Source: a bacterium (lineage in GTDB: Bacteria > Hinthialibacterota > Hinthialibacteria > Hinthialibacterales > Hinthialibacteraceae). Taken from it: 64,000 nucleotides of DNA. Where the stretch lies: contig JBHGBC010000001.1 of assembly GCA_041946805.1 (NCBI GenBank), positions 135,588-199,587 on the forward strand. Direction: 5' to 3'. Positions 16,528-34,358 of this stretch are shown here, one piece after another (the first letter of the stretch is position 1; each line of letters opens with the position of its first letter). A program made the translations under genes and the position numbers. Under the pieces are notes generated by a model. That model was not told the DNA's origin. It was given only the letters and a program-made list of their open reading frames with translations, and ran no database searches.

Positions 16528-16923
16528 ATGCAAGCGATTCTCAATCAGATCCACCCGTTTGGGGTGGCCTTGTGGATGATCGGAGGCTTGGCGGGAGGCC
16601 TGTTTATCCTCCAACTCGCCCTTCCCCGGGGCCGGGCGGGGATCCGGGGCACGCCCGAATCGCGGGTGTATCTCTGGACGATCAACTTCCTCCGGCTGCA
16701 TCTGGCGGCGGGCATCGTGCTCGGGGTGTATGAATATATCCAGTGGTTCACTAAACTGGGCATGACGGACCATTTTTACGACTGGTGGCCCATGTTGCTG
16801 ATTTACCTGGCGTGCCTGGCCGTGGATTTCGCCCTGCTCCGGCTGTTGTTCACGTCCAAATACCGGCGGTATCTCCAATCCGCGGACCGCCTGGGGAAAA
16901 CGGGAGGCCAAGAATCATGGTGA
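16528..16923 (+). CDS. Small multi-pass membrane protein
   Basis: 131 aa with three hydrophobic segments; GGAGG RBS; stop overlaps the tubulin-like gene start. Confidence 0.75.
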   Translation: MQAILNQIHPFGVALWMIGGLAGGLFILQLALPRGRAGIRGTPESRVYLWTINFLRLHLAAGIVLGVYEYIQWFTKLGMTDHFYDWWPMLLIYLACLAVDFALLRLLFTSKYRRYLQSADRLGKTGGQESW

Positions 16924-19976: not shown

Positions 19977-22900
19977 GCGAGAACCGCGTGGAACGCTGTC
20001 CCTGCGCCTTGCGCTGGCCCGTCAATCCGGCCACGGACTTCTATTGCGGCTTTTGCGGGCGGCGGATGCGCGCCTTGGAGGCGGTTCCCCTTCCCAAGGT
20101 CCAAGCTCCCTGGATCATGGGAGGTGAATTCCTGCAAGTCGATCTCGAGATCCGCAACACGGGCCTCGTGCCGCTGACCGTCACCGGCCTGGAGTGGGTC
20201 TCGCCCCGGCCGCCGGAGCCCGGGATTCTGGCCGCCGCGCTGCCCAATCCCCTGGCTTTGCCGCCCCAAACGGAGAGCCATGTCTCTCTGCGGGTGGCCA
20301 TGATCCCCGAGGCCAAATCCCGGACGAAAATCGTCCTACAACTCCGCCTCGGGCCCGCTGACACCGGCCCGGGCCGCGTCCAGCTGAATCCCATCGAAAT
20401 CCCCCTCGCGCCGCCGCCCCGCGTCGAAGTGTCCGGACTGCAAGAGGGGCGGATTCTCCCCGTGGAACGCCTGGAGGAAAGTTTCACCCTCTCCCTGACG
20501 GCCGCCGATCAGGACATCATGCTGGCGGAGGAAAACCAGGTCGTCCTCAAGACGCGGGATGGGAAGGAAGAAGTCCCTCTCGATCCGGCGGTCCCGGTCT
20601 CCCTCCGCCTGCTGCGCTCCCGCCAGCCGGTGGAGTTCCAATTCTCCTCCCCGGCCGCGCTTTTCCCGGGCCAGACACGGGACCGGGACGTTTTCGTGGC
20701 GTTGCGGATCCAGGGTATGGCAACCCCCGTCCGGACGGATATCTTCACCCTGCGCAAACAGATCCCCGCCGAATTCACCCTGCAGTTGGAACTGCCCGAC
20801 GGCATGACGCCGCGGGTGCTCAAGGGGTATCAGCGTTCGTTCGGCCTCCTCCTGCTCAACCGGAGCCCGCGGATTTTCTCTCTGCAAAAGATCACCGTCG
20901 ACCTTCCGGCGTATCTGCGCGAACAAGGTCTCCTGGCCCATGTGCTACCTGCACGGACACCGCCTTTCTTCGTCGAGAAAGTCAAACGGATCGAACTGGG
21001 AACCCTGGTGTTGAACACCGAACGTTGGTCGGGCGGCAGCACGCGCAGTGAGATCCGGATTACCGCCGAAGTGGAAAACGGCCCGGCGGTCCACACACCC
21101 TTGCCCATCCACATCGTGGTCTCCCGGCCGGACTACAACCGCCCCCTGGGTATCGACTTCGGCAACACCAACACCTCGGCGGCGCATTTCGACGACCGCA
21201 ATCTGCCCCTGGTGATTCCCCTCACCCCGCTGGTTCATTGGCCCAGTTTGCGCAATCAATCCATCAACCCCCACGTGGTGGCCACTCTCGTGCAATACGC
21301 GCCGGCCGGAGACAGCGATAGCGATTGGACCGCCCAAAGCGTCCGGGTGGCCGATGTGGGCGAACCGGTCCGCGCCCGGATGAAGCAAAACCCCATCCAC
21401 GGGCGGCGCGTGGTCAGCTTTTTCAAGCCGCGGATCGGCTTCGGCGAGGCGTACCGCTTCCCCTTGATGCCCGATGTCCGGAACAAAACCTTCGATTCCG
21501 TCACCGCCGACTACCTCCAGCGTGTGTTGTTGGCCGTCGAGGAAGAAACCGGGCTGACCCACCGCCGCCTGGTGCTCACCCACCCCGTCCGCTTCTGGAC
21601 CCGCCAGCGCGAAGCCTTGCGGGCGGCCCTGTTCCACGCCATCCGGGAGCGGAAGGAGGATCCGGAAGAGTGGACGGTCTCGTTTCTCGACGAGGCCACC
21701 GCCGTCATCCTGTACCATACCATCGGCCGCTACGTGCTGGGCCATGCCGTCCCGGAGGAAGGACCGGCGGAACAGGAAACCGTCCTGGTTTTCGATTTCG
21801 GGGGCGGAACCATCGACATGACGCTCTGCGAAGTCTCCCGCGATCTCGAAACCGGCCATTGTTTGATTCGCCATCTGGATTTCGACGGCACGGGGGAATT
21901 CGGCGGAGAACGGATTACCGAATTGATCGCCCAGCGGCTCTACGAACGGGCCTGCGAGGCCGCCAACGGCCTTGAAAGCCCACGTCCAGGCGAATCTCCG
22001 GGCGCGGCCGTGGCTCTGCGGGAAAGTGGGGAAGAAATCTTCGGCGGGAAGAAAAAAAGCGGGAAATCCTCCGCGCCCGCCAAGTTTCACCATGCCGTGA
22101 ACACCAAATCCGGCGCGGTGGTGATCCCCTACGGCCGCTGGGACGTGTATCCCACGGTATGGGACCAGCACACCAAAACCGCGATCGACAATTACGTCAA
22201 ATTGTATTATGGAGCCGAGGATCTGAAAATCGACAGCCTCGATCCCAGCGAAAACGAAGCCGGCGATCCCGCGGTCTTCGATCAAATCGACCGGCAGTTT
22301 GAGGTCACCACCGTGCCGGCCAACGACAACCACGCGCCCCCGGTCCGGTTCTCGTTCCCGTACCGGTTCAAGAACGACCGGGACGGCTTGAAACAAGCCG
22401 TGCTGACCGGCCTGGAAGGGGCGCTGGAGATGGTCCGCAAAATGATCGGCCGCTTCCGCGAACGCGCGCGCCTCGAGGGAAATCCCCTTCCCCGCCTCTC
22501 CCGCGTGCTGATGAGCGGCCAATCGAGCCGCCTGCCCTTTATTCAGGAGGCCCTGCGGCAGGCGGTGCAAGAAGCCAACGAGGGGGAACCGGTCGAAGTG
22601 GAACTGCTGAATCCCCTGAAAGAAGCGGTGGCGCTGGGGGCCGCCATCTACGGCGCACTGGATGACCTGGCGCAGGTGGAGATGAACCGGTGCGGCCGGG
22701 TGCATATTTTTCTGCAAAAGCCTGGGGGCGCGATCGGGGCCGGCGCGTTTGTCCCGGTTTTCCGCCGCTTGTCTCCCCTGCCCGCCACCGTGATCTGTTC
22801 CTCGATAAACCAGGAAGGCGCCATTCATTATCCGTTGTATTACGGCATGCGGATCCGGGTGATCGAATCGTTTGTGGATCTCTCGGACCGGCGGGAACTC

Positions 22901-23125
22901 AATCAGGCGGTCCTCGATCAAGATTACCGGGTGTTGGCGGAGATCCCCGTGACTCCCCCCGGCTGGAATCACGGAGACATCCGCGGTGCGGCGTTGAAAA
23001 TCACCTTCTCCGAGGATGAGCAAATCACCGTGACGCTTGTCCCCGGCGCTTCCACGGCATCCCGCGTCGAATCCGTCCGGATCTGGCCCCGCCCGGCTTC
23101 GGAGCCGCGCGGCCGGGCGGAATGA
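19973..23125 (+). CDS. Hsp70/actin-like ATPase fused to N-terminal Zn-ribbon and Ig-like domains
   Basis: CPC..FYCGFCG; GIDFGNTNT (21149-21175), LTHP, LDEATA, FDFGGGTID, FGGERIT, MSGQSSRLP and EAVALGAA; C-terminal beta region resembling a substrate-binding domain (SBD). Confidence 0.85.
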   Translation: MSENRVERCPCALRWPVNPATDFYCGFCGRRMRALEAVPLPKVQAPWIMGGEFLQVDLEIRNTGLVPLTVTGLEWVSPRPPEPGILAAALPNPLALPPQTESHVSLRVAMIPEAKSRTKIVLQLRLGPADTGPGRVQLNPIEIPLAPPPRVEVSGLQEGRILPVERLEESFTLSLTAADQDIMLAEENQVVLKTRDGKEEVPLDPAVPVSLRLLRSRQPVEFQFSSPAALFPGQTRDRDVFVALRIQGMATPVRTDIFTLRKQIPAEFTLQLELPDGMTPRVLKGYQRSFGLLLLNRSPRIFSLQKITVDLPAYLREQGLLAHVLPARTPPFFVEKVKRIELGTLVLNTERWSGGSTRSEIRITAEVENGPAVHTPLPIHIVVSRPDYNRPLGIDFGNTNTSAAHFDDRNLPLVIPLTPLVHWPSLRNQSINPHVVATLVQYAPAGDSDSDWTAQSVRVADVGEPVRARMKQNPIHGRRVVSFFKPRIGFGEAYRFPLMPDVRNKTFDSVTADYLQRVLLAVEEETGLTHRRLVLTHPVRFWTRQREALRAALFHAIRERKEDPEEWTVSFLDEATAVILYHTIGRYVLGHAVPEEGPAEQETVLVFDFGGGTIDMTLCEVSRDLETGHCLIRHLDFDGTGEFGGERITELIAQRLYERACEAANGLESPRPGESPGAAVALRESGEEIFGGKKKSGKSSAPAKFHHAVNTKSGAVVIPYGRWDVYPTVWDQHTKTAIDNYVKLYYGAEDLKIDSLDPSENEAGDPAVFDQIDRQFEVTTVPANDNHAPPVRFSFPYRFKNDRDGLKQAVLTGLEGALEMVRKMIGRFRERARLEGNPLPRLSRVLMSGQSSRLPFIQEALRQAVQEANEGEPVEVELLNPLKEAVALGAAIYGALDDLAQVEMNRCGRVHIFLQKPGGAIGAGAFVPVFRRLSPLPATVICSSINQEGAIHYPLYYGMRIRVIESFVDLSDRRELNQAVLDQDYRVLAEIPVTPPGWNHGDIRGAALKITFSEDEQITVTLVPGASTASRVESVRIWPRPASEPRGRAE

Positions 23126-23140
23126 AGGAGGAGCCCGCCG

Positions 23141-24175
23141 ATGGGCGTTTTGGCTGTCGATTTCTGCCAGGTTCCTCCCCAATGGGCGGACCACGAAGGC
23201 CGAACCGGCCAGGCGCAGGATGGCTGGTGGGGTATCCCGCGGAACGGCGGTATCGCCTGGGACCAGGACGTGGACTCAAAAAGAGATACCGAATCCAGCG
23301 GAGAGAAATCCTTCATCGCCCACCCGGCCCAGGCGGTGGATTCCATGCCTCCCGCGAGCGCCGGGACGGCCCTCTACCCCCTGTTCCGCCGTGTGTTCGC
23401 GGCCCGGCCGGGGAGTGGGGACGAGTGGCTGGTTTTATTGCTCCCGGCGGGCGCGTCTCCCGCCAGCGGAGCTTCCTTGCGGAACTCGGCGCGGCGGGCG
23501 GGATGGCCGGGCCCGGTTTTTCTCACGGACGGCGCGGTGGCGCTGGCCCTGGCCCACGCCTGGAAGAAATCCCGCGCGGCGGCCGTCTTCACCGTGCTGC
23601 GGGACCGGATCTTGGCCGTGGAAGGCTCCTTGATGACCGTCCACGCGAGTGGAAACACGTTGGCGGCGGAGTTGGTGTGCCAATGCCGCCGGGAGGATAA
23701 AAACGAAACGGTCCGCGTGATCCGGGAGACAGGATGGGATCCCGGCACGGTAATGGATGGCTCTTGCTTGGATCCTTCCCGCGGTTCTCTGGAGAACGTG
23801 GCCCGGATGATGAACGAAACTCGCGGGGGGAAAGTGATATTGGAAATAAAAAGGATGGGTGTCTTGGGAACGCGCGCCCGGCAATGGGACTTGTGCCCCC
23901 TGATCGGCGAGGACGCGCCCGTCACCGCCGCCCGGGAATACGAGCTCCAAGCCGGAAAAGACGCTCTGGCGGCCTTGGAATTTTGGTTTGGCTACAATGC
24001 GTCGGCCTTGCACCCGCTCGCCGGAATCCGCTTGACCCGCGGCCGCCTGGATCCGGCCCCGGCCAAAGCGCGGTGCCGCGTGGTCCGGCGATTGAACGGC
24101 GATGTCCAGGTCACGGCCGAATGGAACACCGGAAGCGAAAGCCGGGACCTTTCGTTTCCGATACTCTGGCTCTAA
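23141..24175 (+). CDS. Degenerate (probably inactive) Hsp70-like protein
   Basis: LAVDF; LVLLLPAG..LRNSARRAGW..LTDGAVALALAH parallels DnaK VITVPA..AGRIAGL..INEPTAAALAY; C-terminus resembles the DnaK SBD; AAGGAGG RBS. Confidence 0.65.
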   Translation: MGVLAVDFCQVPPQWADHEGRTGQAQDGWWGIPRNGGIAWDQDVDSKRDTESSGEKSFIAHPAQAVDSMPPASAGTALYPLFRRVFAARPGSGDEWLVLLLPAGASPASGASLRNSARRAGWPGPVFLTDGAVALALAHAWKKSRAAAVFTVLRDRILAVEGSLMTVHASGNTLAAELVCQCRREDKNETVRVIRETGWDPGTVMDGSCLDPSRGSLENVARMMNETRGGKVILEIKRMGVLGTRARQWDLCPLIGEDAPVTAAREYELQAGKDALAALEFWFGYNASALHPLAGIRLTRGRLDPAPAKARCRVVRRLNGDVQVTAEWNTGSESRDLSFPILWL

Positions 24176-24187
24176 GGAGGGGGGATC

Positions 24188-25723
24188 TTGCGAGGCGATA
24201 ATTCATACAGTTCGTTTTCCGGCGGTTCGCCATCTTATTCCAAACAGATGACCGACAAGCAATTTATTTTGGAGTACAGCGTCACTCCCAAGTCGTCCAA
24301 GTATCCCAACCTGTTATGGAAAGGATTTCAGGTCCTGACCGAGGAACGAGAAGACCATACGATCGAGTGCGCGCTTTCGGTGCCCCGGTTCATCAACAAC
24401 CTCAAGGTCATCAATGTCTTCATCGACCATCCCTCCGTGCCGGCGCAAGGCCGTTCCTTTTGGGTGGATCCGGAACGCAACGCCTTCATCTCCTCCCATT
24501 CGTTGATCCTGCATCCCATGGACCAGGCGGCGGCCGAGGGCAAACTCTACCTCATTCAGGAAGGCAATATTCAATCTGAGTACCAGCTCCGTATTTCATG
24601 CCGGATGAAGCAGGGCGCACCCTCTCCGCCCGCCTCCCCTCCGGCTTCTTCCCGCCCTCCGGAATCTTTTCGCGGCCCGGCCCGGAACGTCGTGACCTCC
24701 ACGGCGCCGCGGCCTTCCGAAATCCGGCCGGAATCCAGGTCCCCGGCGCCCCCGGCGGATCCCCAACTGTCCGTCTTGATCGACACTCTGAGCCGCAAGG
24801 TGGAAGCCTTGGCCGCCATCACGCAAAACATCAACACCCGCATGCAGGAAATCAAGATGTCCCTGCACGATATCCGCGGCCAGCTGGAGGTGTTGCAGCA
24901 AGGAATGAAAAACAACCTCCCCGAAACCGCCTTCGAGGATTTCAAGGAAACGCTGCGCCAGGTTTTCACGAATCTGGCCCAGAAAAAATGCGGGGAAATC
25001 ACCGCCTCCCGCAAGCCCGCCCTGGCCGGCAACCGCTACTTCCAGATGCTGGACAATTTCGTGACCGGGCTCAAAGCCGGCCACGCCGCCCGGATCCGCC
25101 TGGAAAACCTGCATCCCGAGTTTCACAATGAAATCCACCGCTTCGCGGCCGATGTCAATCAGACCTTGGGATGGCTCTCCGGACCGGATGTCGAGGTTTA
25201 TTTCGCCAAGCTCGACATCCCCCCCTACGCGAAATTCCTGAAATCCGTCACCCAAAAACAGATCGACGAGTGGCGGCGGAATCCGGACCCGCTCCAACCG
25301 GCGGATTTTGACCTGGATTCCCACGTCCGGCGGCGGTTGTTCTCTCTTTTTCAGCGGGAATATGAAAACCTGCTGGAAGACCTGTCCGCCGGAGCCGGCG
25401 GTGAAGAACCTATGATCCAATCGTATGCAAACATCGTCAACGAGATTCTCCCCCGGCATTTCGACGGCATCGAAACGTTGGAAGCCCAGGGGAAATCCCG
25501 CGATGAAAATATGTTCGAGCTCGTCAATCTGTATTTCACCAGTGTGTTGAATCCGTTGGGCCTGGAGTTGATCCCGGTGGAAGCCGGCGATCCCTTCGAT
25601 CCCCAGCTGCACAACAACGAGAACCATCTCGGCGCCTCCGGCCCGACGGTCCGGACCGTGAAAAAACGCGGCTACCGCACCGTCACCGGACAAATCATCC
25701 GCAAACCGTCGATTTTCGCCTGA
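24188..25723 (+). CDS. Coiled-coil protein with C-terminal GrpE-like domain
   Basis: C-terminal LGLELIPVEAGDPFDPQLH..VRTVKKRGY..IIRKP matches the GrpE beta-domain pattern; TAAGGAGG before TTG 24188 (alternative ATG 24248). Confidence 0.75.
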   Translation: MRGDNSYSSFSGGSPSYSKQMTDKQFILEYSVTPKSSKYPNLLWKGFQVLTEEREDHTIECALSVPRFINNLKVINVFIDHPSVPAQGRSFWVDPERNAFISSHSLILHPMDQAAAEGKLYLIQEGNIQSEYQLRISCRMKQGAPSPPASPPASSRPPESFRGPARNVVTSTAPRPSEIRPESRSPAPPADPQLSVLIDTLSRKVEALAAITQNINTRMQEIKMSLHDIRGQLEVLQQGMKNNLPETAFEDFKETLRQVFTNLAQKKCGEITASRKPALAGNRYFQMLDNFVTGLKAGHAARIRLENLHPEFHNEIHRFAADVNQTLGWLSGPDVEVYFAKLDIPPYAKFLKSVTQKQIDEWRRNPDPLQPADFDLDSHVRRRLFSLFQREYENLLEDLSAGAGGEEPMIQSYANIVNEILPRHFDGIETLEAQGKSRDENMFELVNLYFTSVLNPLGLELIPVEAGDPFDPQLHNNENHLGASGPTVRTVKKRGYRTVTGQIIRKPSIFA

Positions 25724-25944
25724 GATCTTCAAATGCAACAAGGTACGCCGCGGGAGTCACATTCATGCTCGGTATCGACGGGATAAAAAACGTAGGATGG
25801 ATTAATGCGCAGCGCGTAATCCATCAATATCTTGGTCATCCTGTATATCCTGACCATCCTGATTCAGTCAAAAACCGGTCCCCTCTCCCTCTGGGAGAGG
25901 GCCAGGGTGAGGGAAGACACGCGCGCTCGACCGGATGATCTTAC

Positions 25945-27264
25945 ATGACGCCCGACACCTTCCTCTCCTCCGTGTCTTATCCCGAATCCCCGGGCGGGTT
26001 TTCCATCCCCGGCCCGGCTGAGGTCCTCCTTGCCCCTGACGCGCTGTCCCAAATCAATCCCCCTTCCCTCCCCGCTCCCCAAATCGCGGTCTCGGCTGAA
26101 TTGAAATTCAGTCAGCCCCCCACCCGGCCCGTACCCGGCCCGGTTCGTCTCCATCCCCAAACCGGACAACGGGATATCGAACTACGCGTGGGCGAAGCAG
26201 GTTCCGTTTGCCTGGGCGCTCCCCGCCTGGAAGAACCGGGCTTTTACGTGTTCCAACGCCAGGCAGAAGCACGCGCGATCGATTCCGGCCGGATTGTGTA
26301 CGATATCGACACCCGGGAAGGCCTCTGGGTGCTTCCCTCGAATCCCCATGAACCACCCGCCGTGGAAACCTGGCTCTGCGGAATCCGCGGTCCCCGCCGG
26401 GACGCGGCGCACCCCTTGCCCGCGCATGGCCATCATATCCGGGTGGACCGCGAGGGGGCGCGCAGCGTGATCACCCACGATCCCGCCGTGTGGATCGCCA
26501 ATCCCCATGGGCATTCCGTCAAGTCAATGGCCAAAAAACTGAAGCCCTGGGACCTGACCGCCGATAAGGGTGGTCTCGTGTTGCGGCCGCGGCCGGATTA
26601 CTTTGCCTCCATTCCCGAGGAGGCCGTGATCTCACTCCCCCGCCTGAAATTACGTCTCCGGCTCGTTAAATACTGCTGGCCCGCGGCGCTCACGGCGGAG
26701 TTGCTTTCTTCTCCTGCCAATCCGGAATCCGCCTCCATCCGCCTCCAGTGGCGGGGGACCCGGCCGGTCCGGATCATGCTGCGCGGCGCGGGGACGGATC
26801 CGTTCCCGCCCATGACCACCGTGCTCTCCGGCGATAATCCCGAACGCTTGTTGACCATTCCACCCGCCGCCTGCGCCGGGCCCCGCCGCGGAAGCGTGGC
26901 CGTGGAATCTGACGAAACGGTCATCACTTGCCGCGTGCGGATTCTGCCGCTTCCTCCACAGCGCCGCCTGGCCTGTTATCCACCCTTGATCGTGTGGGGA
27001 GATGACGACCGGACCGTCAACGCGGGAGTGGTTTTCGCGCCGGAAGAACCGGCGGATTTCCGCGTCATTCCGCCCCCGGAAATGGCCTCCTGTGAATGGG
27101 AACCCGGCGGGCAGCCGGGCGCGTTCCGGTTTCATCTTGCCGGCCCCCGGCCCGGCCCGCCCTGGGCGGGATGCGTCACGGTGATCGACATTCATTCCGG
27201 CGCGCGCGGGTATATTCCTGTCATCCGCCTGTCAATACCAGCCATACCCGAGGACCCATGCTAA
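25945..27264 (+). CDS. Hypothetical Pro/beta-rich protein
   Basis: 439-aa ORF whose stop overlaps the start of the MotA-like gene. Confidence 0.65.
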   Translation: MTPDTFLSSVSYPESPGGFSIPGPAEVLLAPDALSQINPPSLPAPQIAVSAELKFSQPPTRPVPGPVRLHPQTGQRDIELRVGEAGSVCLGAPRLEEPGFYVFQRQAEARAIDSGRIVYDIDTREGLWVLPSNPHEPPAVETWLCGIRGPRRDAAHPLPAHGHHIRVDREGARSVITHDPAVWIANPHGHSVKSMAKKLKPWDLTADKGGLVLRPRPDYFASIPEEAVISLPRLKLRLRLVKYCWPAALTAELLSSPANPESASIRLQWRGTRPVRIMLRGAGTDPFPPMTTVLSGDNPERLLTIPPAACAGPRRGSVAVESDETVITCRVRILPLPPQRRLACYPPLIVWGDDDRTVNAGVVFAPEEPADFRVIPPPEMASCEWEPGGQPGAFRFHLAGPRPGPPWAGCVTVIDIHSGARGYIPVIRLSIPAIPEDPC

Positions 27265-28988
27265 GCCAAGTAATACTCTACCTGTTCTCAACTCCCGCCT
27301 TGCGCGAATACCTGGATTCGCTTTCCAGCATCGCCTGGAGCCTGATCGAAGCGATCGCCTGGATTCTCCTGGCGGGCGGGATCACCATGGGAATCCATGT
27401 GGCCCGGCGGATGCTCCTCTTGCTGCGCCTGCGGGGAGTGGCGCGCGTCATCCAAAATACGGACTGGCAGCCGCTGGCCATCCCCCAACGCTTCGCGCAG
27501 CTGAAGCCTATCTGCAAGCCGGCCGCGGGCCTGCGCTGGGCCGTCGAGACCATGGAACGGCTTTCATCCCGGCAATATTCCAACCGGATGGAGGAGGTCA
27601 TCGACCTGTGCGTGGCGCGTTACCGCCCGCCCGAAATTTACACCCTGCTGCCCCGCCTCGCCATCATGACCGGCCTCATGGGCACCCTGATCGGCCTGCT
27701 GATCGCGGTGCAGGATGTGTATCTGAAAGTGGAATCGCTCGACAGCATCGACAGCCTGCGCGCTCCCTTGCACTCTACCCTTAGCGGGCTCAGCACCGCC
27801 TTTGTGACCACCCTCGCCGGGGTTTTCGCCGCCGCCGTGTTAAGCCCCCTCCTGGTTCTGACCCGCTGGAGCTCGTTCCAGGTCATCAACCGCCTGGATG
27901 CTTTATTGTCCACCGAGATCCTGCCCCTGGTCACACCTCCCAAGCGCGCGCGGAAACAAACCCTGGGGCAAATGGTGGAGAAAGTCAGCCGCGCGGTGGT
28001 CGAAAACACCATGGGCGGCCTCGTGCGCGAAACCGCCGCCGGCGTGAACGAACTGAGTGTCCGCCTGGCCGAGGCCGTCAACGCCGCCGCCAGCCGCCAG
28101 GCCGATATGCACGGCGTGGTGTTCAAACTGGAGCAGGCGGGCGAGGGCCTGCAAGAGGCCGCCGGCAAAATCCACGGCGCGTTGGGGCAACTGAACGAAT
28201 ACTTGCTCACCCTGACGCAAACCATCGCCCGCCTGACGCCCGAAGCCGAAATCCGCGAACAAAACGCCCGGCTGCTGGGCGCGATCGTCAAGGAAGAACT
28301 TTCGGAACTGGGGGATGAACTGCGCCGCTTCAACGCCGATTGGTCCGAACGCCTGCGGCAGTTCCCCGCGGGCCTCGAACCGTTGGGCATTCTTATCGAC
28401 AAGGCCGTCAAGGATCTGCGCGACGACCTGGGCTCTTTGCCATCCCGCGTCATCGCCCACTTGCAGCCCATCACCGAGCAACTCAAGGATTTGAATGTTT
28501 TGGCCCAAAACGAAAGGGAATGGTGGCGGGCCCGGGCCGGAAAAGTCCCCGAAGATCTGTCTCAGGCCCTCTCCCGTCATCTCGAGCCCCTGCAGGCCGC
28601 CGCGCTGGAAGCGTTGAGAAACCAAACCGCGCGTCTGGACGAGATCCGCGGTGTGCTGGAGCCTTTCTCAGGCGTCCTGGAGCGCATCGTCCAGCGGATC
28701 GAAGAGGGGTATCTCTCGCTGCCCACGGTCTCGGTGACCACCCCGGCGGGAGAGGCTCCGGAACCAGCCGGAACGGCGGGCGCGAATCTGGATGAAATCA
28801 AAGCGGGTCTCTGGCAATTGGGCCAGCAATCCCTGCGGACCCTCACTGCCGTCCGCGAGTCGGCCAACGAATACCGGCAAATGCACCAGGACCTGCGGCA
28901 GCTCATAGGCCTGCTCCAGCCGGACCGGCGTCCTTTGTGGCGGCGGATGCGTTCCTGGATTCAGGGAGACGGAGACAAACCGTCATGA
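27258..28988 (+). CDS. MotA/TolQ/ExbB-family membrane protein with long helical tail (ZorA-like architecture)
   Basis: PRLAIMTGLMGTLIGL and LSGLSTAFVTTLAGV channel helices followed by ~350 aa of amphipathic helix; ATG 27258. Confidence 0.85.
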   Translation: MLSQVILYLFSTPALREYLDSLSSIAWSLIEAIAWILLAGGITMGIHVARRMLLLLRLRGVARVIQNTDWQPLAIPQRFAQLKPICKPAAGLRWAVETMERLSSRQYSNRMEEVIDLCVARYRPPEIYTLLPRLAIMTGLMGTLIGLLIAVQDVYLKVESLDSIDSLRAPLHSTLSGLSTAFVTTLAGVFAAAVLSPLLVLTRWSSFQVINRLDALLSTEILPLVTPPKRARKQTLGQMVEKVSRAVVENTMGGLVRETAAGVNELSVRLAEAVNAAASRQADMHGVVFKLEQAGEGLQEAAGKIHGALGQLNEYLLTLTQTIARLTPEAEIREQNARLLGAIVKEELSELGDELRRFNADWSERLRQFPAGLEPLGILIDKAVKDLRDDLGSLPSRVIAHLQPITEQLKDLNVLAQNEREWWRARAGKVPEDLSQALSRHLEPLQAAALEALRNQTARLDEIRGVLEPFSGVLERIVQRIEEGYLSLPTVSVTTPAGEAPEPAGTAGANLDEIKAGLWQLGQQSLRTLTAVRESANEYRQMHQDLRQLIGLLQPDRRPLWRRMRSWIQGDGDKPS

Positions 28989-29686
28989 GCGCGGGAAGAC
29001 ACGCCCACCGGCGCGACATTCTCTACTCCGGCCCGGCTCTCGAGAACCTGGAAGACATCTGGCCGGTTTTTTCCGACATCGCCATTTCCATCATCCTGTT
29101 TTTGATCTTCATGCTGGTGGCGCAATTTCTCGAACTCTCCCAGGTCTTCGACACCTTCGCCCGCAAACGCATGCAGCAGACCATATGGCAATCGCTGGAC
29201 CGCAATCCGTACTTTCACGACTTGATCCAGGGCGGCAACCTGACCATGACCGTGCACGGGACCTTGCAGCGCTTCGGATTCGCCTCCGACATCGTCTTCG
29301 TCCTGGGCGAGGCCGACCTGCAATCCCGGGGGCGCGAGGTCCTCACCCAGTTCGCCCGCTTCCTCAGCGCCCAGGGCCCGCCGGACCTCTACATCGAGGT
29401 CGAGGGGCACACCGACCGCATCCCCGTCACCAGCGGCCGCTACCGCGACAACTGGGAACTCTCCGCCGAGCGCGCCCTGACCGTGGTCCGCCTGTTCCAA
29501 CAACTCTCCGCCGACCCCGCCTCGGGAGTGACCTTCAATCCCCAAAACATCTCGGCGATCGGTTACGGCGAATTCCGCCCCCTCGAGGATAAGAATGAAT
29601 CCTTCCTCAACCGGCGGATCGAAATCCGGCTGGATTACAGCAAAATCCCGATCCGTTCCGGCAACACCCCGGCGGGAACCAATTGA
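28985..29686 (+). CDS. MotB/OmpA-family protein (ZorB-like)
   Basis: WPVFSDI TM with conserved Asp; VEGHTD, NWELSAERA, GYGEFRP and NRRIEI; ATGA overlap with upstream gene. Confidence 0.9.
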   Translation: MSAGRHAHRRDILYSGPALENLEDIWPVFSDIAISIILFLIFMLVAQFLELSQVFDTFARKRMQQTIWQSLDRNPYFHDLIQGGNLTMTVHGTLQRFGFASDIVFVLGEADLQSRGREVLTQFARFLSAQGPPDLYIEVEGHTDRIPVTSGRYRDNWELSAERALTVVRLFQQLSADPASGVTFNPQNISAIGYGEFRPLEDKNESFLNRRIEIRLDYSKIPIRSGNTPAGTN

Positions 29687-29904
29687 GGCAGCCCGGGCGT
29701 CCCATCCGGGAAAGGCGTGGATAGGGCATAAGATTTTTCCTTGGAGGGCGAGGCTCCCGCCAAGCCGGTCTTCCCGGATTGTTGGCTCACCAGCAGGTTC
29801 GCCCTCCCAATCCCTTCTCCCCCCGGGAGAGGGCCAGGGTGAGGGAAAGCCTTTGCCGCCCGGGCGGCCCGCCTGCCCCTCCTGATACCGGTGACACCCT
29901 CCCC

Positions 29905-32721
29905 TCATTCCTTTCGTATCCTCAAATGCTGGTTCAAGGCGGGGTGGGGGATGACCTGCTTTTCGCGGTCCCGCCAATGAATGGTGAGTTCGTCGATCGA
30001 ATCGATCTCCCCGAATCCGAAATGCAGGGTTTGGCTGTTTTGAGAAAGGTAACTGGAGCCGCCGTCGACGATCCGGGCCCAGATTCGATCCCCCTTCCGG
30101 GCGGTCACCTTCACGCCGTAACTGTCTGCGCTGGACGCCTCCAAGGTCACCTTGAGCCAGTTCCCTTGCGGGGTTTGATTCTCCAGCAACAGGGGCGTGG
30201 AATCCACGCAGTTGATGACGATATCCATGTCGCCGTCGTTGTCATAATCCAGGAGGGCCGACCCCCGTCCGCCGATGACCGGCTGAGCCCCGGGGAAGGA
30301 GCGCGCGGTGACATCCTCGTATTTGGTCCCCAGGTTGCGGTAGAGGGAAATCCCTTGTTTGTATTTCCGGCCCAATCCCAGGCTGTCGATTTGCGGGTAA
30401 AGGTGGCCGTTGGCGGTGTAGAGATCGAGCCGGCCGTCCGCGTCGAAGTCACCGAATCCCGATCCCCACGTGATCAGCCAATAGCTATAGAATCCCAATC
30501 CCCACAAGTTTGTCACGTCCGTGAACCGGCCTTCGCCATCATTGCGGTACAACACGTCGGACATGGTCTCGTACGAGGTGACGAATACATCCAGGCGGCC
30601 GTCGTTGTTGAAATCGCCCAGGCTGGCCCCCATGTCGCCTCCCGCCACCCCCTCCTCGTTGTACGCGGCCCCGGAAAAGAAACTGATATCCTCGAAAGTT
30701 CCATCCCCCCGGTTGCGCAAGACATGGTTGTAAGTGGAATCGATGGACACGTACAGGTCGAGATCGCCGTCATCCTCGATATCGAAGAACACGCAACCCA
30801 TGGCGCGGCCCTCCGACACGTTGATCCCCGCCGCCGCGCTGGTTTCCCGGAAAGTCCCGTTCTTTTGATTGATGTAGAGATGGTCATCCTGATGCTCGTA
30901 GGCCAGTGGATTGGCGAACACCGGTATTCCATGGTACTGGCCCTTTTTTTGCCCATCGGTTTGAGGATCGAACGCCACGTAATTCCCCACAAAGAGATCC
31001 AGCCAGCCGTCACCGTTGACGTCCGCGAAGGCCGCGGCTCCCGCGTAGCCGGGCTCGTCGATCCCCGCGCTCTGCGTGATATCGGTGAAGGCGCCGTTTC
31101 CGTCGTTGTGGTACAAGACATCGGGACCGTAGTTCCCCACAAAAAGGTCCAGCCGGCCGTCGTTGTCGATGTCGCCGAAAACCGCGGCCATCCCATACCC
31201 GGTGTCGCCCACGCCGGCCTGCCCGGTCACGTCCACGAACCGCCCGCCGTCGTTACGGAACAGGGCGTTCCGGTATTCCGGCTGGGGATGGGCATAATCC
31301 GGACGCGCGTTGACGAAGTAGATGTCGTCATCCCCGTCCTGGTCGTAATCCCCCACGGCCACGCCGGAGCCCATGGCGTCGATGATCCACTGCTTATCCG
31401 GATTCCCCTGCGTATGTTTGAACGCCGTCAGGCCCGTTTTCTCCGTCACGTCCACGAACCGGAAAACCAGGGGGGCGGAAGCGGACTCCACGGGGCCGGG
31501 GGATGTTTCCGGGTGCTTTTGTTTCTCGGCCTCCAGTTTCCCGGCCAAGGCTTGCAACGGCTTGGAATCCTTGAAACGGGATAAGGCATCCGTCATATAG
31601 GCTTGGGCTTCTTCCACGCGTCCCAGTTGAAACAGCGACCAGGCCCTCTGTTCGGCGAAGATTTGCGCTTCCACGGCGCGGGGATGTTTCAGCCGCTCCT
31701 GGAGGGCCAGGCATCCCGCGTAATCGCCGTCCTGAAACCGGATCTGCGACAAGAGAAACAGAAACGGTTCGTTGGCCTGGCCTTCCTTGAGTTTCTGCTC
31801 CAGGTATTTGCGCGCGAGGTCGCGGCGGTTGACGAAACACAGTTCCGTGGCCAGTTCATATCCATCCTTGAGGCTGATTTCGGCCGGGTGAAAAAACGAA
31901 TACCGCATTCGTCCTTCCTTGATGTCATCCCAGGAGGACATGTGCACGGAGATGGATCGGAATTCCCGCAGCGCGTCGTTTTTTTGCAGCCGGGCCAGCG
32001 TGGTCAGCAACGCGTTATACGCCTCGCGGAAGAAAGGATAAAACTTGACGGCTTCCCGGAAATGCTTCTCGGCCGCCTCATACTTTCCCGCCTGATTGTT
32101 CAACCGCCCCAGTTCGTAATACGCCAGGTAATGCTTGGGATTGGCCTGGACCGCCCGTTGCAGCAACGGCTCCGCTTCTTTCAACGCGCCTTCGGCGATA
32201 TGGATCCTCCCCAGGAGAAACAATCCGTCGGGATCCTCGGGCTTTAGCGATAGCAATTCGGTCAGCCAGGCCTTGGCCTCCGCGTTCTTCCCCAAGGTCT
32301 GCGCCACCGCGGCGCATTGATACAGGAGATAGGGATCGCCGGGCTTGAGCCGCAGGGCTTTTTGGCATTGCTGGATGGCGGCTTCCACATTCCCCGTACG
32401 CCAATACGCGCGCCCCAGAATGAAAGCGATGTCCGCCTCATTCTCATACTTCGTTTCGAGGGATTGTAGAAAAGGGATCCATTCCGCCCCCGGATTCAAT
32501 CGGTTCAAAGCTTGAATGATCCTTGGCGTTTCGCTTGGCGCCAGCGAGGCCGGGAGAGCCTCCAGGGCGGCCGCGGCCTGCTCCCGGTTCCCTTCCTGCA
32601 AGGCTTGAATCAGAGCATCGGTCCCCGGACCCGCGGCCGGTGGCTCCTCGCCCGGGCCTGGAACGGCCTGCAATAGAATCCAAAACCACAGACCACCCAG
32701 GGCGAACGTTTTATACGTCAT
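29905..32721 (-). CDS. TPR + FG-GAP/CRTAC1-like + ASPIC/UnbV domain protein
   Basis: Signal peptide, TPR repeats, repeated GDxDxDGxxDLFVxN motifs and SYLSQNSQTLHFGFG. Confidence 0.88.
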   Translation of the reverse strand: MTYKTFALGGLWFWILLQAVPGPGEEPPAAGPGTDALIQALQEGNREQAAAALEALPASLAPSETPRIIQALNRLNPGAEWIPFLQSLETKYENEADIAFILGRAYWRTGNVEAAIQQCQKALRLKPGDPYLLYQCAAVAQTLGKNAEAKAWLTELLSLKPEDPDGLFLLGRIHIAEGALKEAEPLLQRAVQANPKHYLAYYELGRLNNQAGKYEAAEKHFREAVKFYPFFREAYNALLTTLARLQKNDALREFRSISVHMSSWDDIKEGRMRYSFFHPAEISLKDGYELATELCFVNRRDLARKYLEQKLKEGQANEPFLFLLSQIRFQDGDYAGCLALQERLKHPRAVEAQIFAEQRAWSLFQLGRVEEAQAYMTDALSRFKDSKPLQALAGKLEAEKQKHPETSPGPVESASAPLVFRFVDVTEKTGLTAFKHTQGNPDKQWIIDAMGSGVAVGDYDQDGDDDIYFVNARPDYAHPQPEYRNALFRNDGGRFVDVTGQAGVGDTGYGMAAVFGDIDNDGRLDLFVGNYGPDVLYHNDGNGAFTDITQSAGIDEPGYAGAAAFADVNGDGWLDLFVGNYVAFDPQTDGQKKGQYHGIPVFANPLAYEHQDDHLYINQKNGTFRETSAAAGINVSEGRAMGCVFFDIEDDGDLDLYVSIDSTYNHVLRNRGDGTFEDISFFSGAAYNEEGVAGGDMGASLGDFNNDGRLDVFVTSYETMSDVLYRNDGEGRFTDVTNLWGLGFYSYWLITWGSGFGDFDADGRLDLYTANGHLYPQIDSLGLGRKYKQGISLYRNLGTKYEDVTARSFPGAQPVIGGRGSALLDYDNDGDMDIVINCVDSTPLLLENQTPQGNWLKVTLEASSADSYGVKVTARKGDRIWARIVDGGSSYLSQNSQTLHFGFGEIDSIDELTIHWRDREKQVIPHPALNQHLRIRKE

Positions 32722-32846
32722 GGTGGAATTCTCCCGAGAGAAAGAATGTTCGGATTGAGTGTACAAACTCCCCGCCGGCCTTAAAAGAGATAATTGCCTC
32801 GTTTTTTTGTAATTATAACGATATATCGATTTAATTGTTTTTTGAC

Positions 32847-32875
32847 TTGACCCTCGCACTTATATTTGATAAATT
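32847..32875 (+). promoter_or_regulatory. Putative sigma70 promoter of first paralogue
   Basis: TTGACC-17 bp-TAAATT with TG extension; conserved upstream of the second paralogue. Confidence 0.55.
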
Positions 32876-32927
32876 AACTCGGTTTACTGCAAGATTCAAT
32901 ATATCACATGGAGGAGGATGCACCATT

Positions 32928-33968
32928 ATGAAACGGTTCGGAACGGCTGTTTTTATTCTATTTGTCGCATCAATCTTGGCCGCCGCGCAGGACACCTCAG
33001 TCAACGTGAATTCCTATACCATCCCTGAGTTGCCCAGCGTTCCGGTGGTCGACGGGGACCTCTCCGACGCCGTATGGGCCAGTGTCCCCGCGATTCCCAT
33101 GGATATGCTGGGCGATTCTCCCCCCGCCGATCCGGGTACGGGCGACCTGGACATTGTGCTCAAAGTGGCCTGGGACGACGAGACCAACGCCCTCTACTTT
33201 GGCGTCAACGTCAAGGATGAATCGTATGTGGGCGTACGCGGATTAGGTTCATCCGTGGGGACGGACGGTTACAACGGCGAGCGGCTGGAAGTCATCCTCG
33301 ACGGCACCAACAGCGGCGACGCGGCCTCTTCCACCACCTCCGGGTATCACCAGCAATACACGTTCGACATGCCCTACACCTGGGACACCTGGAGCGCCTC
33401 CAACGACATCGCCAAGAAGGTGTTCACGCCGGGCGAAATGGGGTATCTCGACACCACCGGCGGGGGAATCAAGCCCTCGGCCACTTTCGTTCAGGTCCCG
33501 GTTTTCGAGCGGATCGAGGGAACGCTGAACCTGACCAACGATTCGGCTCCCTGGGACATCGCCAACGAGTATGTCGAATCCGCCGCGCGGATCCGCGTCA
33601 CGGATCCCCAGGTCACCGAATGGGCCGCGGCCCCGGTGGAATTCAGCTGGGAGGTGAAAATCATACCCTTTGAATACATCATGCCGGCCGCCGACCTGGG
33701 GTATGACATCACCGATCCCGCGGAAATTGCCACGGGATGGCTCTCCTTCTGGAAAGATCCCGTCCACATCCCGCTGGACCTGAAGGAAAAAATCGTTGTT
33801 GGATTCACGGCGCAGCAAAACGACGCGGATGTGTGGGACGAGACCGCGGCGCGCGAACACCAAACCAACACGACCGGAGTCGCGGGCAACTGGAACAGCA
33901 GCGAGAGTTTGACCGGCTTGATCCTCGGCGCGAAATCCGCCGCGGTGCCGGACTGGTCCTTGCAGTAA
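32928..33968 (+). CDS. Secreted CBM9/DOMON-like sugar-binding domain protein (paralogue 1)
   Basis: Signal peptide; PVVDGDLSDAVW and KVAWDDETNALYFGVNVKDE typical of CBM9-like domains; ends VPDWSLQ. Confidence 0.7.
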   Translation: MKRFGTAVFILFVASILAAAQDTSVNVNSYTIPELPSVPVVDGDLSDAVWASVPAIPMDMLGDSPPADPGTGDLDIVLKVAWDDETNALYFGVNVKDESYVGVRGLGSSVGTDGYNGERLEVILDGTNSGDAASSTTSGYHQQYTFDMPYTWDTWSASNDIAKKVFTPGEMGYLDTTGGGIKPSATFVQVPVFERIEGTLNLTNDSAPWDIANEYVESAARIRVTDPQVTEWAAAPVEFSWEVKIIPFEYIMPAADLGYDITDPAEIATGWLSFWKDPVHIPLDLKEKIVVGFTAQQNDADVWDETAAREHQTNTTGVAGNWNSSESLTGLILGAKSAAVPDWSLQ

Positions 33969-34280: not shown

Positions 34281-34309
34281 TTGACTTGGAGTCTTGGCTT
34301 TGATAATTT
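34281..34309 (+). promoter_or_regulatory. Putative sigma70 promoter of second paralogue
   Basis: TTGACT-17 bp-TAATTT (overlapping GATAAT); homologous to 32847-32875. Confidence 0.55.
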
Positions 34310-34358
34310 AAATCGAACTATGGCAAGAATAAATCCATCACATCAAGGAGGGTGTACT

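Follow-up and report, generated by a model that had tools for sequence, protein, structure and literature searches.

A MotAB/ZorAB-like gene pair closes an operon for tubulin-like, vWA-like and Hsp70-like proteins in a Hinthialibacterota genome

In a 64,000-nucleotide stretch of bacterial DNA (the window, by which we mean this whole stretch), a ten-gene operon ends with genes for a long-tailed channel protein, A (positions 27258–28988, + strand), and a peptidoglycan-binding partner, B (28985–29686, + strand). On balance we favour the reading that they are the envelope module of an FtsZl1, vWA-like and Hsp70–GrpE-like system, namely a Zorya-like, peptidoglycan-anchored ion motor with a role in conflict or defence. 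The two proteins very probably belong to the FtsZl1 system and, by analogy with solved motors, are probably an ion-driven stator; that the operon serves defence is something we infer tentatively, ranking it somewhat above housekeeping membrane remodelling. A preliminary description of this DNA had placed the pair exactly, at 27258–29686, and correctly had the locus end after B, where the next gene (29905–32859, encoding a TPR/FG-GAP/ASPIC protein) is convergent, but it had called the pair an orphan, which its position in the operon contradicts.

The ten genes (13208–29686) are co-directional on the + strand and partly overlapping, with 4-nt overlaps at g2/g3, g4/g5 and A/B and 7-nt overlaps at g3b/g4 and g8/A. 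A starts at ATG 27258, and B starts at ATG 28985, overlapping the A stop (ATGA); translational coupling links A with B, and the pair with g8. The first gene, g2 (13208–14758), encodes a 516-aa protein with a Cys-rich N terminus, a possible Zn ribbon; it contains no P-loop motif and has no family match in Pfam (E ≤ 5), NCBIfam or PADLOC. It is followed by g3 (14755–16521), encoding a 588-aa vWA-like membrane protein with an N-terminal signal or transmembrane segment, a DxSxS-type motif (WDGSQSM) and a second hydrophobic segment at about residues 405–428. In an Atlas feature search the top cluster for g3 was vWA (score 0.95, 203 features in common), as were all ten of the ten best named matches; because Pfam returned no match, the vWA assignment is a strong lead from sequence features rather than a profile match. 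The gap between g3 and g4 is filled by g3b (16528–16923), a possible 131-aa small membrane protein with three hydrophobic stretches in its translation. Deinococcus operons carry a 108-aa hydrophobic ORF at the equivalent position, with no sequence similarity to g3b (E 0.22).

The tubulin-like GTPase of the operon, g4 (16917–19976), is an FtsZl1/Tubulin_2 protein of 1,019 aa (PF13809, E 5.1e-31, 108.6 bits; gathering score 27) with a GGTGSG signature and a helical C-terminal extension of about 600 aa, a part for which four relatives were found; we placed its start at ATG 16917 on the evidence of the four homologues found, all of which are 994–1,019 aa long and share the N-terminal sequence. The 1,050-aa product of g5 (19973–23125) combines an N-terminal Cys cluster and a beta-rich region with an Hsp70-like nucleotide-binding domain (PF00012, 24.6 bits; gathering score 20.6); its sequence contains the motifs GIDFGNTNT and VFDFGGGTIDMT and matches NCBIfam DnaK models only partially (31 bits). 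The C terminus of g7 (24188–25723; 511 aa) matches GrpE weakly, at E 0.002 and 18.3 bits in Pfam, under the gathering score of 25.8, and at E 3.5e-4 in NCBIfam; we read it as GrpE-like because the gene adjoins the Hsp70-like gene. Two further conserved proteins, from g6 (23141–24175; 344 aa) and g8 (25945–27264; 439 aa), have no match in Pfam, NCBIfam or PADLOC; similarity of g6 to g5 is not significant, and g8 has three relatives, at 67–85% identity, in addition to the protein of the window itself. REP-like palindromic repeats of families D2/D4 lie in the g7–g8 gap within the operon (25880–25931, + strand) and directly downstream of B at its end (29799–29863, + strand).

Protein A combines a three-transmembrane channel of the ExbB/TolQ/ZorA fold class with an extended helical tail, which bears out the MotA-type channel and helical tail first described. 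Its 576 residues include three hydrophobic segments (about 25–46, 134–156 and 177–201), with a match to MotA_ExbB (PF01618; 23.4 bits, gathering score 22.9) at residues 130–199. The 372 aa after residue 204 form a cytoplasmic tail that is all-helical in an AF2 model, at low confidence (pLDDT 50–60, versus 80–94 for residues 1–225), and that has a hydrophobic periodicity of 3.6. The tail contains 5% proline, compared with 0.6–2.6% in 17 ZorA1/3 representatives, and among PDB sequences it matches apolipoprotein A-IV best (E 6e-7); the tail may therefore not form a single continuous bundle, and the proline content is a point against our main reading.

Searched by fold against the PDB with Foldseek, A retrieved ZorA chains as its best five matches (TM-score by target 0.52–0.59), in keeping with the ZorA/ZorB-like architecture originally proposed. 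TolQ and ExbB ranked next with TM-scores as good as those of ZorA (0.57–0.62), and flagellar MotA scored 0.33. E-values were weak throughout (none ≤0.001), and these, like the TolQ scores, also count against the main reading. Among NCBIfam models at E ≤ 0.01, A matched ZorA_2, ZorA_4 and, very weakly in the tail, SMC; the MotA, TolQ and ExbB models gave no match at that threshold. The A family is small: a threshold of E ≤ 1e-30 gave six representatives in 1.84 billion proteins.

Protein B (233 aa) is of the MotB/ZorB type, with an Asp in the membrane and an OmpA-like domain, also as described at the outset. A W26-P-V-F-S-D31 motif accompanies its one hydrophobic segment (28–46), the OmpA profile PF00691 is matched at E 1.7e-12, and the stretch N156-W-E-L-S-A-E-R-A matches what we take to be the OmpA-type peptidoglycan-binding motif. 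The best PDB and NCBIfam matches are the peptidoglycan-binding domains of MotB, MotS, PomB and MotD. The periplasmic domain resembles any MotB, PomB or MotS domain, with ZorB chains ranking 19th and 34th, a lack of ZorB specificity that again weighs against the main reading.

The arrangement recurs elsewhere. A Ca. Omnitrophota metagenome-assembled genome (MAG) holds the end of g4 and then g5 to B in the same order as the window, with identities of 73% (g5), 65% (g6), 60% (g7), 66% (g8), 70–81% (A) and 93% (B), while the downstream flanks differ; because both are conserved there, A and B are not chance ORFs. A tblastn search with g4 gave nine plasmid records, and in three of the seven contexts fetched, all on Deinococcus plasmids, tubulin-like, MotA-like and OmpA genes follow in that order; on a fourth Deinococcus plasmid both matches lie about 2.6 kb apart. 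The A family aligns with the Deinococcus MotA-like protein in hhalign (probability 88%, E 3e-6), and B aligns with the Deinococcus OmpA protein from the FSD motif to its end (27% identity, E 3e-14).

Such operons were tabulated by Makarova and Koonin 2010, whose supplement 5 gives vWA–FtsZl1–B7–COG1360 (MotB) in Anabaena, Cyanothece, Microcystis and Trichodesmium. In two Deinococcus genomes it lists MotA/TolQ/ExbB and OmpA after FtsZl1, and it has FtsZl1 adjoining GrpE in Chloroflexus and DnaK in Magnetospirillum. Like them, the operon here encodes a Tubulin_2 protein of about 1,000 aa, preceded directly by a vWA-like gene and followed by genes for a membrane protein and a MotB/OmpA protein. 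A and B are homologues of the Deinococcus pair, although the Deinococcus MotA-like protein is shorter (411 aa). The cyanobacterial B7 is presumably MotA-like. The Zorya-type motor reportedly went unrecognised in that work because it predates the naming of Zorya. The earlier proposal of a tubulin/Hsp70 block in place of nucleases is supported in that the genes are co-operonic and g5 to B are syntenic in the MAG, but the association itself is not new.

By sequence, A and B lie outside ZorA/ZorB types I–III, with type III the nearest named family. The best named PADLOC profiles were ZorA3 for A (52.3 bits) and ZorB3 for B (66.7 bits, over the full length of B), whereas a real type III pair, from Caballeronia, scored 1,217 and 377 bits; family-level ZorA scores span 400–1,217 bits, and A reached 27 against the cut-off of 100 for NCBIfam ZorA_2. 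The new Zorya subtype suggested in the preliminary description is not supported by these scores, and the family-level failure counts against our own reading as well. Bona fide ZorA3 proteins made up 6 of 35 remote profile matches of A in one search and 36 of 90 in a second, in which three more were ZorA1. A channel-region tree, which has no power for deep placement (a further point against the main reading), put the A family outside the ZorA3 core clade, a clade with a support of 99. AU tests of three groupings named after inspection of the tree rejected none of them (p 0.69 with Deinococcus, 0.44 with ZorA3 and 0.56 with E. coli MotA/TolQ/ExbB); the phylogeny proposed at the outset does not place the A family.

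Type III Zorya (ZorG3–ZorA3–ZorB3–ZorF3, on Caballeronia plasmid NZ_CP084267.1) has the same long-tailed channel protein followed by a short MotB-like OmpA-domain protein; B is 31–32% identical to plasmid-encoded ZorB3 proteins across 91% of its length, and neither system encodes a nuclease-type partner. The operon here has no DUF3348 (ZorG) or DUF2894 (ZorF) gene and differs also in its partners, which are tubulin-like, vWA-like and Hsp70-like. By fold, A is matched best in the PDB by type I ZorAB from E. coli and Shewanella (8QYD, 8QYK, 8VVN), which, according to Hu et al. 2024, has three transmembrane helices and a cytoplasmic tail directly after TM3. A likewise has three helices and a tail that starts right at the end of TM3, both B subunits have a membrane Asp (Asp26 in type I, Asp31 here), and the peptidoglycan-binding domain lies near the transmembrane helix in both; the A tail, however, is shorter (372 versus about 500 aa) and contains more proline. 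The operon has neither ZorC nor ZorD, and no match was detectable between A and the type I ZorAB sequences in the PDB.

PADLOC matched no ZorC, ZorD, ZorE, ZorF or ZorG among 12 ORFs, nor among 19 ORFs of the window, and no known Zorya effector was found linked to the A/B homologues in the MAG, both as anticipated. Together with ZorA3 and ZorB3 as best named profiles, this absence would suit a degenerate Zorya locus in which A and B outlasted their effectors and stand behind the tubulin/Hsp70 genes by coincidence. We find that scarcely credible: A is joined to g8 and B by the 7-nt and 4-nt overlaps, the genes are not decaying, because the g5–B order is kept in the MAG with B so nearly identical, a similar adjacency is seen again in Deinococcus and in the tables of Makarova and Koonin, and the scores are distant from those of real ZorA3 and ZorB3.

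The MotB-type matches of B, the TolQ/ExbB fold scores of A and the unrejected grouping with E. coli MotA/TolQ/ExbB would also suit a stator or energiser of another envelope process, such as motility, by flagella or by gliding, or a Tol/Ton-like system that passes energy to the outer membrane. Those 5:2 motors share the channel superfamily PF01618 with A, TolQ and ExbB share its three-transmembrane fold, and flagellar MotAB shares the MotB-type peptidoglycan-binding domain. Their partner genes are absent here, however: Pfam scans of 40 ORFs, a set of the larger ORFs, found no flagellar, gliding, TolA/TonB or Pal genes, and the lack of flagellar genes agrees with the preliminary description. Flagellar MotA has four transmembrane helices rather than the three of A, E. 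coli MotA, TolQ and ExbB have 25–55 aa after the channel in place of the 372-aa tail, and their NCBIfam models do not match A. TolR and ExbD, unlike B, are not known to have an OmpA domain. We therefore regard such a role as highly unlikely.

The FtsZl1 system with its motor may serve defence or the housekeeping of the cell. Gene sets of tubulin+vWA and of HSP70+GrpE count as conflict systems in the classification of Kaur, Burroughs, Iyer and Aravind 2020: one theme of their DO-GTPase/GAP1-N2 systems has tubulin+vWA and another HSP70+GrpE, sometimes with a second, HSP70-only gene, and the proteins are predicted to build nucleotide-driven assemblies close to the membrane. The two themes are non-overlapping in that account, whereas the operon here unites them, and the words MotA, MotB, TolQ and ExbB do not occur there. 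The DO-GTPase + GAP1 core is absent here (no P-loop motif, no Pfam match), which counts against the main reading. On three Thermales plasmids, genes for vWA, tubulin-like and ~680-aa proteins adjoin brxL, helicases and an exonuclease, with a HEPN protein in one, and the Azospirillum copy sits amid caspase-family genes; these neighbourhoods lean towards defence, as do the classing by Kaur et al., the rarity of the A family and the differing flanks.

In a housekeeping machine, by contrast, the peptidoglycan-anchored motor would position or power a tubulin-like filament and the Hsp70-like ATPase at the inner membrane, for envelope shaping, vesicle formation or lineage-specific Omnitrophota cell biology, with no conflict role. 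Makarova and Koonin 2010 read FtsZl1–vWA–OmpA operons in this way, as membrane-remodelling or cytoskeletal machinery. The operon is well kept between the two genomes, and its neighbours in the wider window are ordinary metabolic genes (an ABC transporter, carbohydrate-active proteins, trpAB and accD), with no defence gene within 19 kb. The window shows no defence-island context, again a point against the main reading. No nuclease, protease or NADase-type effector was recognisable in the operon by Pfam, PADLOC or NCBIfam, and no PADLOC model matched its tubulin-like, vWA-like or Hsp70-like proteins. Against a housekeeping machine stand the patchy, sparse distribution (the six A representatives and the four relatives of the g4 C-terminal part), the scatter of Tubulin_2 proteins described in a 2023 survey, the many plasmid copies, some adjoining BREX-type or helicase genes or among caspases, the unlike flanks, and the defence role of Zorya, the nearest named motor family. 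We consider it rather unlikely.

Under the reading that we prefer, a conflict or defence system with a Zorya-like motor, five A subunits would surround two B subunits, by analogy with solved ZorAB; B would be anchored to peptidoglycan, and ion flow past its Asp31 would turn A. The bundled A tail could carry the signal some 50 nm into the cytoplasm, as a rough estimate, and there engage the tubulin-like GTPase as well as the Hsp70-like ATPase and the GrpE-like protein acting as its exchange factor, which together would replace the ZorC/D/E nucleases. The vWA-like g3, whose vWA part is apparently outside the membrane, may supply envelope-side sensing, such that envelope perturbation would trigger a response that ends with proteins assembling at the membrane, driven by nucleotides. 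The association of tubulin-like proteins with MotA-like/OmpA pairs and with DnaK/GrpE was already catalogued in 2010, but no operon tabulated there brings together, as this one does, tubulin-like, Hsp70-like, GrpE-like and MotAB-like genes.

The motor pair occupies two translationally coupled genes that together fill positions 27258–29686 exactly, as the preliminary description had it. Gene A, which encodes a ZorA-like channel subunit of 576 aa, runs on the plus strand from an ATG at 27258 to a stop at 28988; gene B, which encodes a MotB-type subunit of 233 aa, runs on the plus strand from an ATG at 28985 to 29686, its ATG lying within an ATGA overlap with the stop of A. A has three hydrophobic segments, at about residues 25–46, 134–156 and 177–201, followed by a tail of 372 aa, and Pfam MotA_ExbB matches residues 130–199 at 23.4 bits against a gathering score of 22.9; the MotA-type channel with a long helical tail that had been described is present, and with it the ZorA trait of three transmembrane helices followed by a long helical cytoplasmic tail. 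In an AlphaFold2 model built on an alignment of 27 relatives, residues 1–225 had a pLDDT of 80–94, and the tail was all-helical at low confidence (pLDDT 50–60). The sole transmembrane segment of B bears W26-P-V-F-S-D31 and its OmpA domain matches Pfam at E 1.7e-12, giving both the MotB-type helix and the OmpA-like domain that had been noted and the ZorB trait of a single transmembrane segment holding a conserved Asp, with an OmpA-like peptidoglycan-binding domain nearby. The model of B comprises a helix over residues 17–73 and strands from residue 86; its mean pLDDT was 67 and that of the remaining four models 37–39, making the short linker between the transmembrane segment and the OmpA domain a weak point. 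The next gene (29905–32859) is convergent, so the locus ends directly after B. With coordinates, segments and domains all as claimed, the observation is confirmed in every descriptive point; its interpretation is partly supported, as set out below.

B is not, however, half of an orphan pair: A and B are the last genes of a co-directional block (13208–29686) that they share with tubulin-like, vWA-like, Hsp70-like and GrpE-like genes, and four of its gene junctions, g2/g3, g4/g5, g8/A and A/B, have overlapping start and stop codons (g2 to g8 being the genes 5′ of A). The 516-aa product of g2 has a Cys-rich N-terminus and belongs to no family. The 588-aa product of g3 is vWA-like: its Atlas feature score to vWA clusters was 0.95, with 203 shared features, vWA accounted for ten of its ten best named matches, and its sequence has a DxSxS-type motif; Pfam gives it no match at E≤5. 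The gap between g3 and g4 is filled by a possible unannotated small membrane ORF, g3b (16528–16923, plus strand, 131 aa with three hydrophobic stretches), which shares 7 nt with the start of g4. The corresponding position in Deinococcus operons is occupied by a hydrophobic ORF of 108 aa that has no sequence similarity to g3b. The tubulin-like assignment of g4 is firm: its product is a Tubulin_2/FtsZl1 protein of about 1000 aa whose match to PF13809 reaches 108.6 bits (gathering score 27) and which retains the GGTGSG signature. Four homologues of g4, all with PF13809, are 994–1019 aa long and have in common the N-terminal sequence that begins at ATG 16917, which is why we prefer this start to GTG 16785.

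Further along the operon, g5 (1050 aa) has an Hsp70-like nucleotide-binding domain, the match of 24.6 bits being just over the Pfam cut-off of 20.6. The 344-aa product of g6 belongs to no family and has no sequence similarity to g5; conceivably it represents half of an Hsp70 domain. The C-terminus of g7 is GrpE-like; its match of 18.3 bits is under the Pfam cut-off of 25.8 (NCBIfam E 3.5e-4), and its neighbour gene is our reason for calling it GrpE-like. The 439-aa product of g8 has no family either, and an Atlas search with it gave nothing usable. No enzymatic effector was visible in the operon, whose only Walker A motif lies within a low-complexity stretch of g5; searches found no Rfam family and no tRNA, and promoter and terminator scans did not rise above shuffled expectation.

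The same gene order is kept in a Candidatus Omnitrophota MAG, at the sole locus (L001) returned by a single scan of genome contigs. It comprises the end of g4, g5 (73% identity), g6 (65%), g7 (60%), g8 (66%), A (70–81%) and B (93%), followed 3′ of B by unrelated sugar-metabolism genes that do not occur in the window. The A gene of this locus (7190–8921) carries a frameshift near residue 209, which is probably an assembly error since there exists an intact 576-aa protein, the relative P0004, with the same N-terminal sequence. The counterpart of B (8918–9589) is near-invariant over residues 24–222, whereas the other operon proteins are 60–81% identical between these two genomes; the small subunit is under unusually strong constraint. 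Close relatives of A are few. A profile of four A sequences, run against 1.84 billion representatives, retrieved 337 proteins at E≤0.001, six of them at E≤1e-30 (two of the six from the query alignment) and the next at E 1.5e-11; word-based searches, with the window's own proteins excluded, gave A and g8 three relatives each and the C-terminal part of g4 four. P0006, an A-family protein 31% identical to A, and P0164, a g4 homologue at 44–50% identity, share the same sources and a longest contig of the same size (73,553 bases), which suggests that the linkage of tubulin-like and motor genes is also found in a more distant genome.

We then asked how near this pair stands to Zorya, of which it had been proposed to form a new subtype, with the tubulin/Hsp70 block in place of nucleases. 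The best named PADLOC profile for A was ZorA3, at 52.3 bits over the channel region only, compared with 400–1368 bits for real ZorA3 proteins, and that for B was ZorB3, at 66.7 bits compared with 377.5 bits for a real ZorB3; a type III locus on a Caballeronia plasmid, with ZorG3, ZorA3 (1217 bits), ZorB3 (377 bits) and ZorF3, illustrates the difference. Among NCBIfam models, only ZorA_2 (27.2 bits, cut-off 100) and ZorA_4 matched the channel. Neither A nor B reached a family-level match to ZorA or ZorB of types I–III, and with bit scores so far under those of a real type III pair we regard them as distant relatives, not members, of the Zorya families. Among the remote matches of the A profile, classified apart from P0131–P0153, bona fide ZorA3 proteins made up 6 of 35 and 36 of 90, and ZorA1 proteins 3 of 90. 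No ZorC, ZorD, ZorE, ZorF or ZorG was detected by PADLOC in 12 and 19 further window ORFs, in two L001 ORFs or in the syntenic part of L001, and Pfam revealed no flagellar genes among 40 ORFs (small ORFs lay outside these scans), in agreement with the earlier remark that neither Zorya effectors nor flagellar genes are recognisable in the window. The proposal of a Zorya-like subtype stands as regards the ZorAB-like architecture and the lack of linked known Zorya effectors, but not as regards family membership, for which the profile scores are far too low.

Two other kinds of motor have to be weighed against this. For a flagellar MotAB pair speak the NCBIfam MotB, MotD and MotS models, all of which B matches below their cut-offs, and the periplasmic domain of B, which in a weak model best fits MotS, PomB and MotB; ZorB chains rank 19th and 34th in the PDB fold search with B, aligned over the whole chain. 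A, on the other hand, matches no NCBIfam MotA model, and C. jejuni flagellar MotA fits it poorly (TM-score 0.33). For a TolQR or ExbBD pair speaks the fold of A: in a Foldseek search of the PDB, which gave no match at E≤0.001, the top five hits were ZorA chains (TM-score by target 0.52–0.59), and TolQ (0.57–0.62) and ExbB (about 0.5) fitted as well as ZorA, indicating that the shared fold class is real. Yet A has no NCBIfam TolQ or ExbB match, and its partner B has an OmpA domain.

A quick maximum-likelihood tree of the channel, with 76 rows and 126 retained columns, comprised eight family members, three Deinococcus, three E. coli and three ZorA1 proteins, 14 of the 42 identified ZorA3 proteins and the first 45 unnamed matches; the other 28 ZorA3 sequences (some of them fragments), later unnamed matches and P0131–P0153 lay outside it. 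Two clades only were solid, one of the eight A-family members (support 100) and another of the ZorA3 core (99), and the Deinococcus proteins and unnamed sequences grouped with the A family at loose support (SH-aLRT 89). The A family is thus distinct and not nested in ZorA3, but the tree gives it no deep placement: AU tests rejected neither a grouping with the Deinococcus proteins (p 0.69) nor one with ZorA3 (p 0.44) or with E. coli MotA, TolQ and ExbB (p 0.56).

The tail of A (27870–28988) has a hydrophobic periodicity of 3.6, the same as most ZorA3 tails examined, and a proline content of 5%, compared with 0.6–2.6% in 17 ZorA1 and ZorA3 representatives. When PDB sequences were searched with the A profile, the tail matched only apolipoprotein-type helical repeats, best those of apolipoprotein A-IV (E 6e-7), and no motor protein was found; the tail of a Deinococcus MotA-like protein (11199–12434 of locus L002) likewise matches Pfam Apolipoprotein, at 25 bits and below the cut-off. 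Compared with the ZorA bundle as presented in the accessible part of Hu et al. 2024, the tail of A may be broken into more segments. A complex prediction of the C-terminal 610 aa of g4 with the last 147 aa of A scored 0.00 in two runs, a value that is evidence neither way.

Operons of this kind have been catalogued before. FtsZl1 was defined by Makarova and Koonin 2010, whose abstract proposes that FtsZl1, a vWA protein, a GTPase and OmpA-family proteins make up a system for membrane remodelling. In their supplementary file 5, vWA, FtsZl1, a protein called B7 (520–563 aa) and a COG1360 MotB occur together in Anabaena, Cyanothece, Microcystis and Trichodesmium; FtsZl1, a MotA/TolQ/ExbB protein (411 aa) and OmpA in two Deinococcus genomes; vWA, FtsZl1 and GrpE (1083 aa) in Chloroflexus; and FtsZl1, vWA genes and a 1626-aa DnaK in Magnetospirillum. 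B7 appears in their file 6 merely as a 'membrane-associated protein'; we infer that the cyanobacterial B7 is MotA-like. Tubulin_2 proteins are still treated as scattered, divergent outliers in the accessible part of a 2023 survey. Literature searches retrieved no experimental study of FtsZl1/Tubulin_2, no paper joining Zorya to tubulin-like genes and, judged by titles and abstract openings, nothing on this operon among work on tubulin-like, vWA and MotA defence systems.

A tblastn search with g4 matched nine plasmid records, and contexts were fetched for seven of them. Three Deinococcus plasmids have the order tubulin-like, MotA-like, OmpA, with an IS630 transposase gene and one more ORF between the tubulin-like and MotA-like genes in D. 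radiophilus; on a fourth, the g4 match and a MotA-like match lie about 2.6 kb apart. The Deinococcus MotA-like protein aligned to the A profile in hhalign with 88% probability (E 3e-6), and in BLASTP the OmpA protein was 27% identical to B (E 3e-14) over an alignment that starts at the FSD motif and runs to the end. The FtsZl1–vWA systems of Makarova and Koonin 2010 accordingly share with our operon, in Deinococcus, a downstream membrane protein and MotB/OmpA pair homologous to A and B. Neither A nor its unnamed relatives P0012 and P0018 matched any plasmid by tblastn, and another relative, P0032, matched solely the four Deinococcus plasmids. On three Thermales plasmids, vWA and tubulin-like genes form a unit of three with the gene for a hypothetical protein of ~680 aa, and no MotA-like gene is present; the unit adjoins brxL, helicase-related genes and a 3′–5′ exonuclease on all three, and on one also a Swt1-type HEPN protein and a DUF1156 protein. 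An Azospirillum tubulin-like copy is surrounded by caspase-family genes. The gene context in these Thermales and Azospirillum relatives leans towards a role in conflict.

Conflict systems with a related composition are described in the accessible text of Kaur et al. 2020, where DO-GTPase/GAP1-N2 systems have tubulin and vWA as one theme and HSP70 and GrpE as another. Both themes are present in our operon; that text nowhere mentions MotA-type proteins, however, of which the operon has one, and neither DO-GTPase nor GAP1 was found in the operon, where g2, g3, g6 and g8 have no Pfam match at E≤5. Several points speak against a role in conflict: the window shows no defence island, the nearest PADLOC match being an RmrA-like HTH-peptidase 19 kb off; tubulin-like, vWA-like and Hsp70-like proteins are not covered by any PADLOC model; and, as noted, the operon has no visible enzymatic effector. 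The RmrA-like gene (48947–50062, minus strand) encodes an HTH and M78-peptidase protein, with 152 bits to RmrA and weaker matches to capP and capH, and sits in a stretch at 46–56 kb of 51–55% GC, compared with about 60% elsewhere. At 19 kb from the operon, the gene may mark a small island of mobile or defence-related character.

Dispersed in the window is also a GC-rich palindromic intergenic repeat with core ...CCCTCTCCCTCTGGGAGAGGGCCAGGGTGAGGG..., each copy about 35–52 nt long, at positions 5755, 7412, 11194, 12978, 25880, 29812, 39054 and 40196. Single copies lie 5′ of g2, inside the operon in the g7–g8 gap, and directly after B, and the repeat is present in the L001 flank too; it looks like a REP-type element. 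Downstream, the genes at 32835–33968 and 34281–35402 (both plus strand) are adjacent paralogues, 76% identical over a stretch of 300 nt; a CBM9-like domain is present in one of them.

What the analysis shows is domain content, operon structure, conservation and recurrent linkage. A and B are best described as a ZorAB-like motor module of an FtsZl1–vWA system in an Omnitrophota-like genome. For this module we infer a stoichiometry, an ion flow, a set of protein contacts and a biological role. By analogy with the ZorAB structure, so far as the accessible part of Hu et al. 2024 describes it, five A subunits would surround two B subunits; B would bind peptidoglycan, and ion flow past Asp31 would turn A. 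The tail of A might relay a signal to cytoplasmic partners, namely the tubulin-like GTPase, the Hsp70-like ATPase and the GrpE-like factor, with the vWA-like protein as a putative sensor on the envelope side.

A bolder reading, which we consider possible but on balance doubtful, is that FtsZl1/vWA operons with a ZorAB-like motor, which occur in Omnitrophota, Deinococcus and probably cyanobacteria, constitute a widespread sister of Zorya that has gone unrecognised and that couples a rotary sensor to a tubulin-like output. An ion-driven, peptidoglycan-anchored rotary sensor would signal envelope breach through its tail, and the output would be nucleotide-driven polymerisation or remodelling by the tubulin-like GTPase instead of a nuclease; here, the Hsp70-like ATPase and GrpE-like exchange factor might reinforce it, and the assembly would wall off or abort infection. 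To our knowledge, Zorya is the only defence system with a 5:2 ion-driven motor, and all the Zorya partners that we know to have been described are DNA-acting or small proteins of no known role. Were the sister reading true, the tubulin superfamily would gain its first known immune effector, and a family unassigned since 2010 would gain a function.

Although the kind of operon was already catalogued, two things are new: a single operon unites tubulin-like, vWA-like, Hsp70-like, GrpE-like and Zorya-like motor genes, and it draws a link between the 2010 FtsZl1 operons and Zorya. Deinococcus radiodurans and Anabaena are tractable carriers of such systems. Together with the Deinococcus plasmids and the cyanobacterial gene orders of 2010, the operon points either to a second output for such motors or to a motor-powered membrane cytoskeleton, and either possibility would give the FtsZl1/Tubulin_2 family a function.
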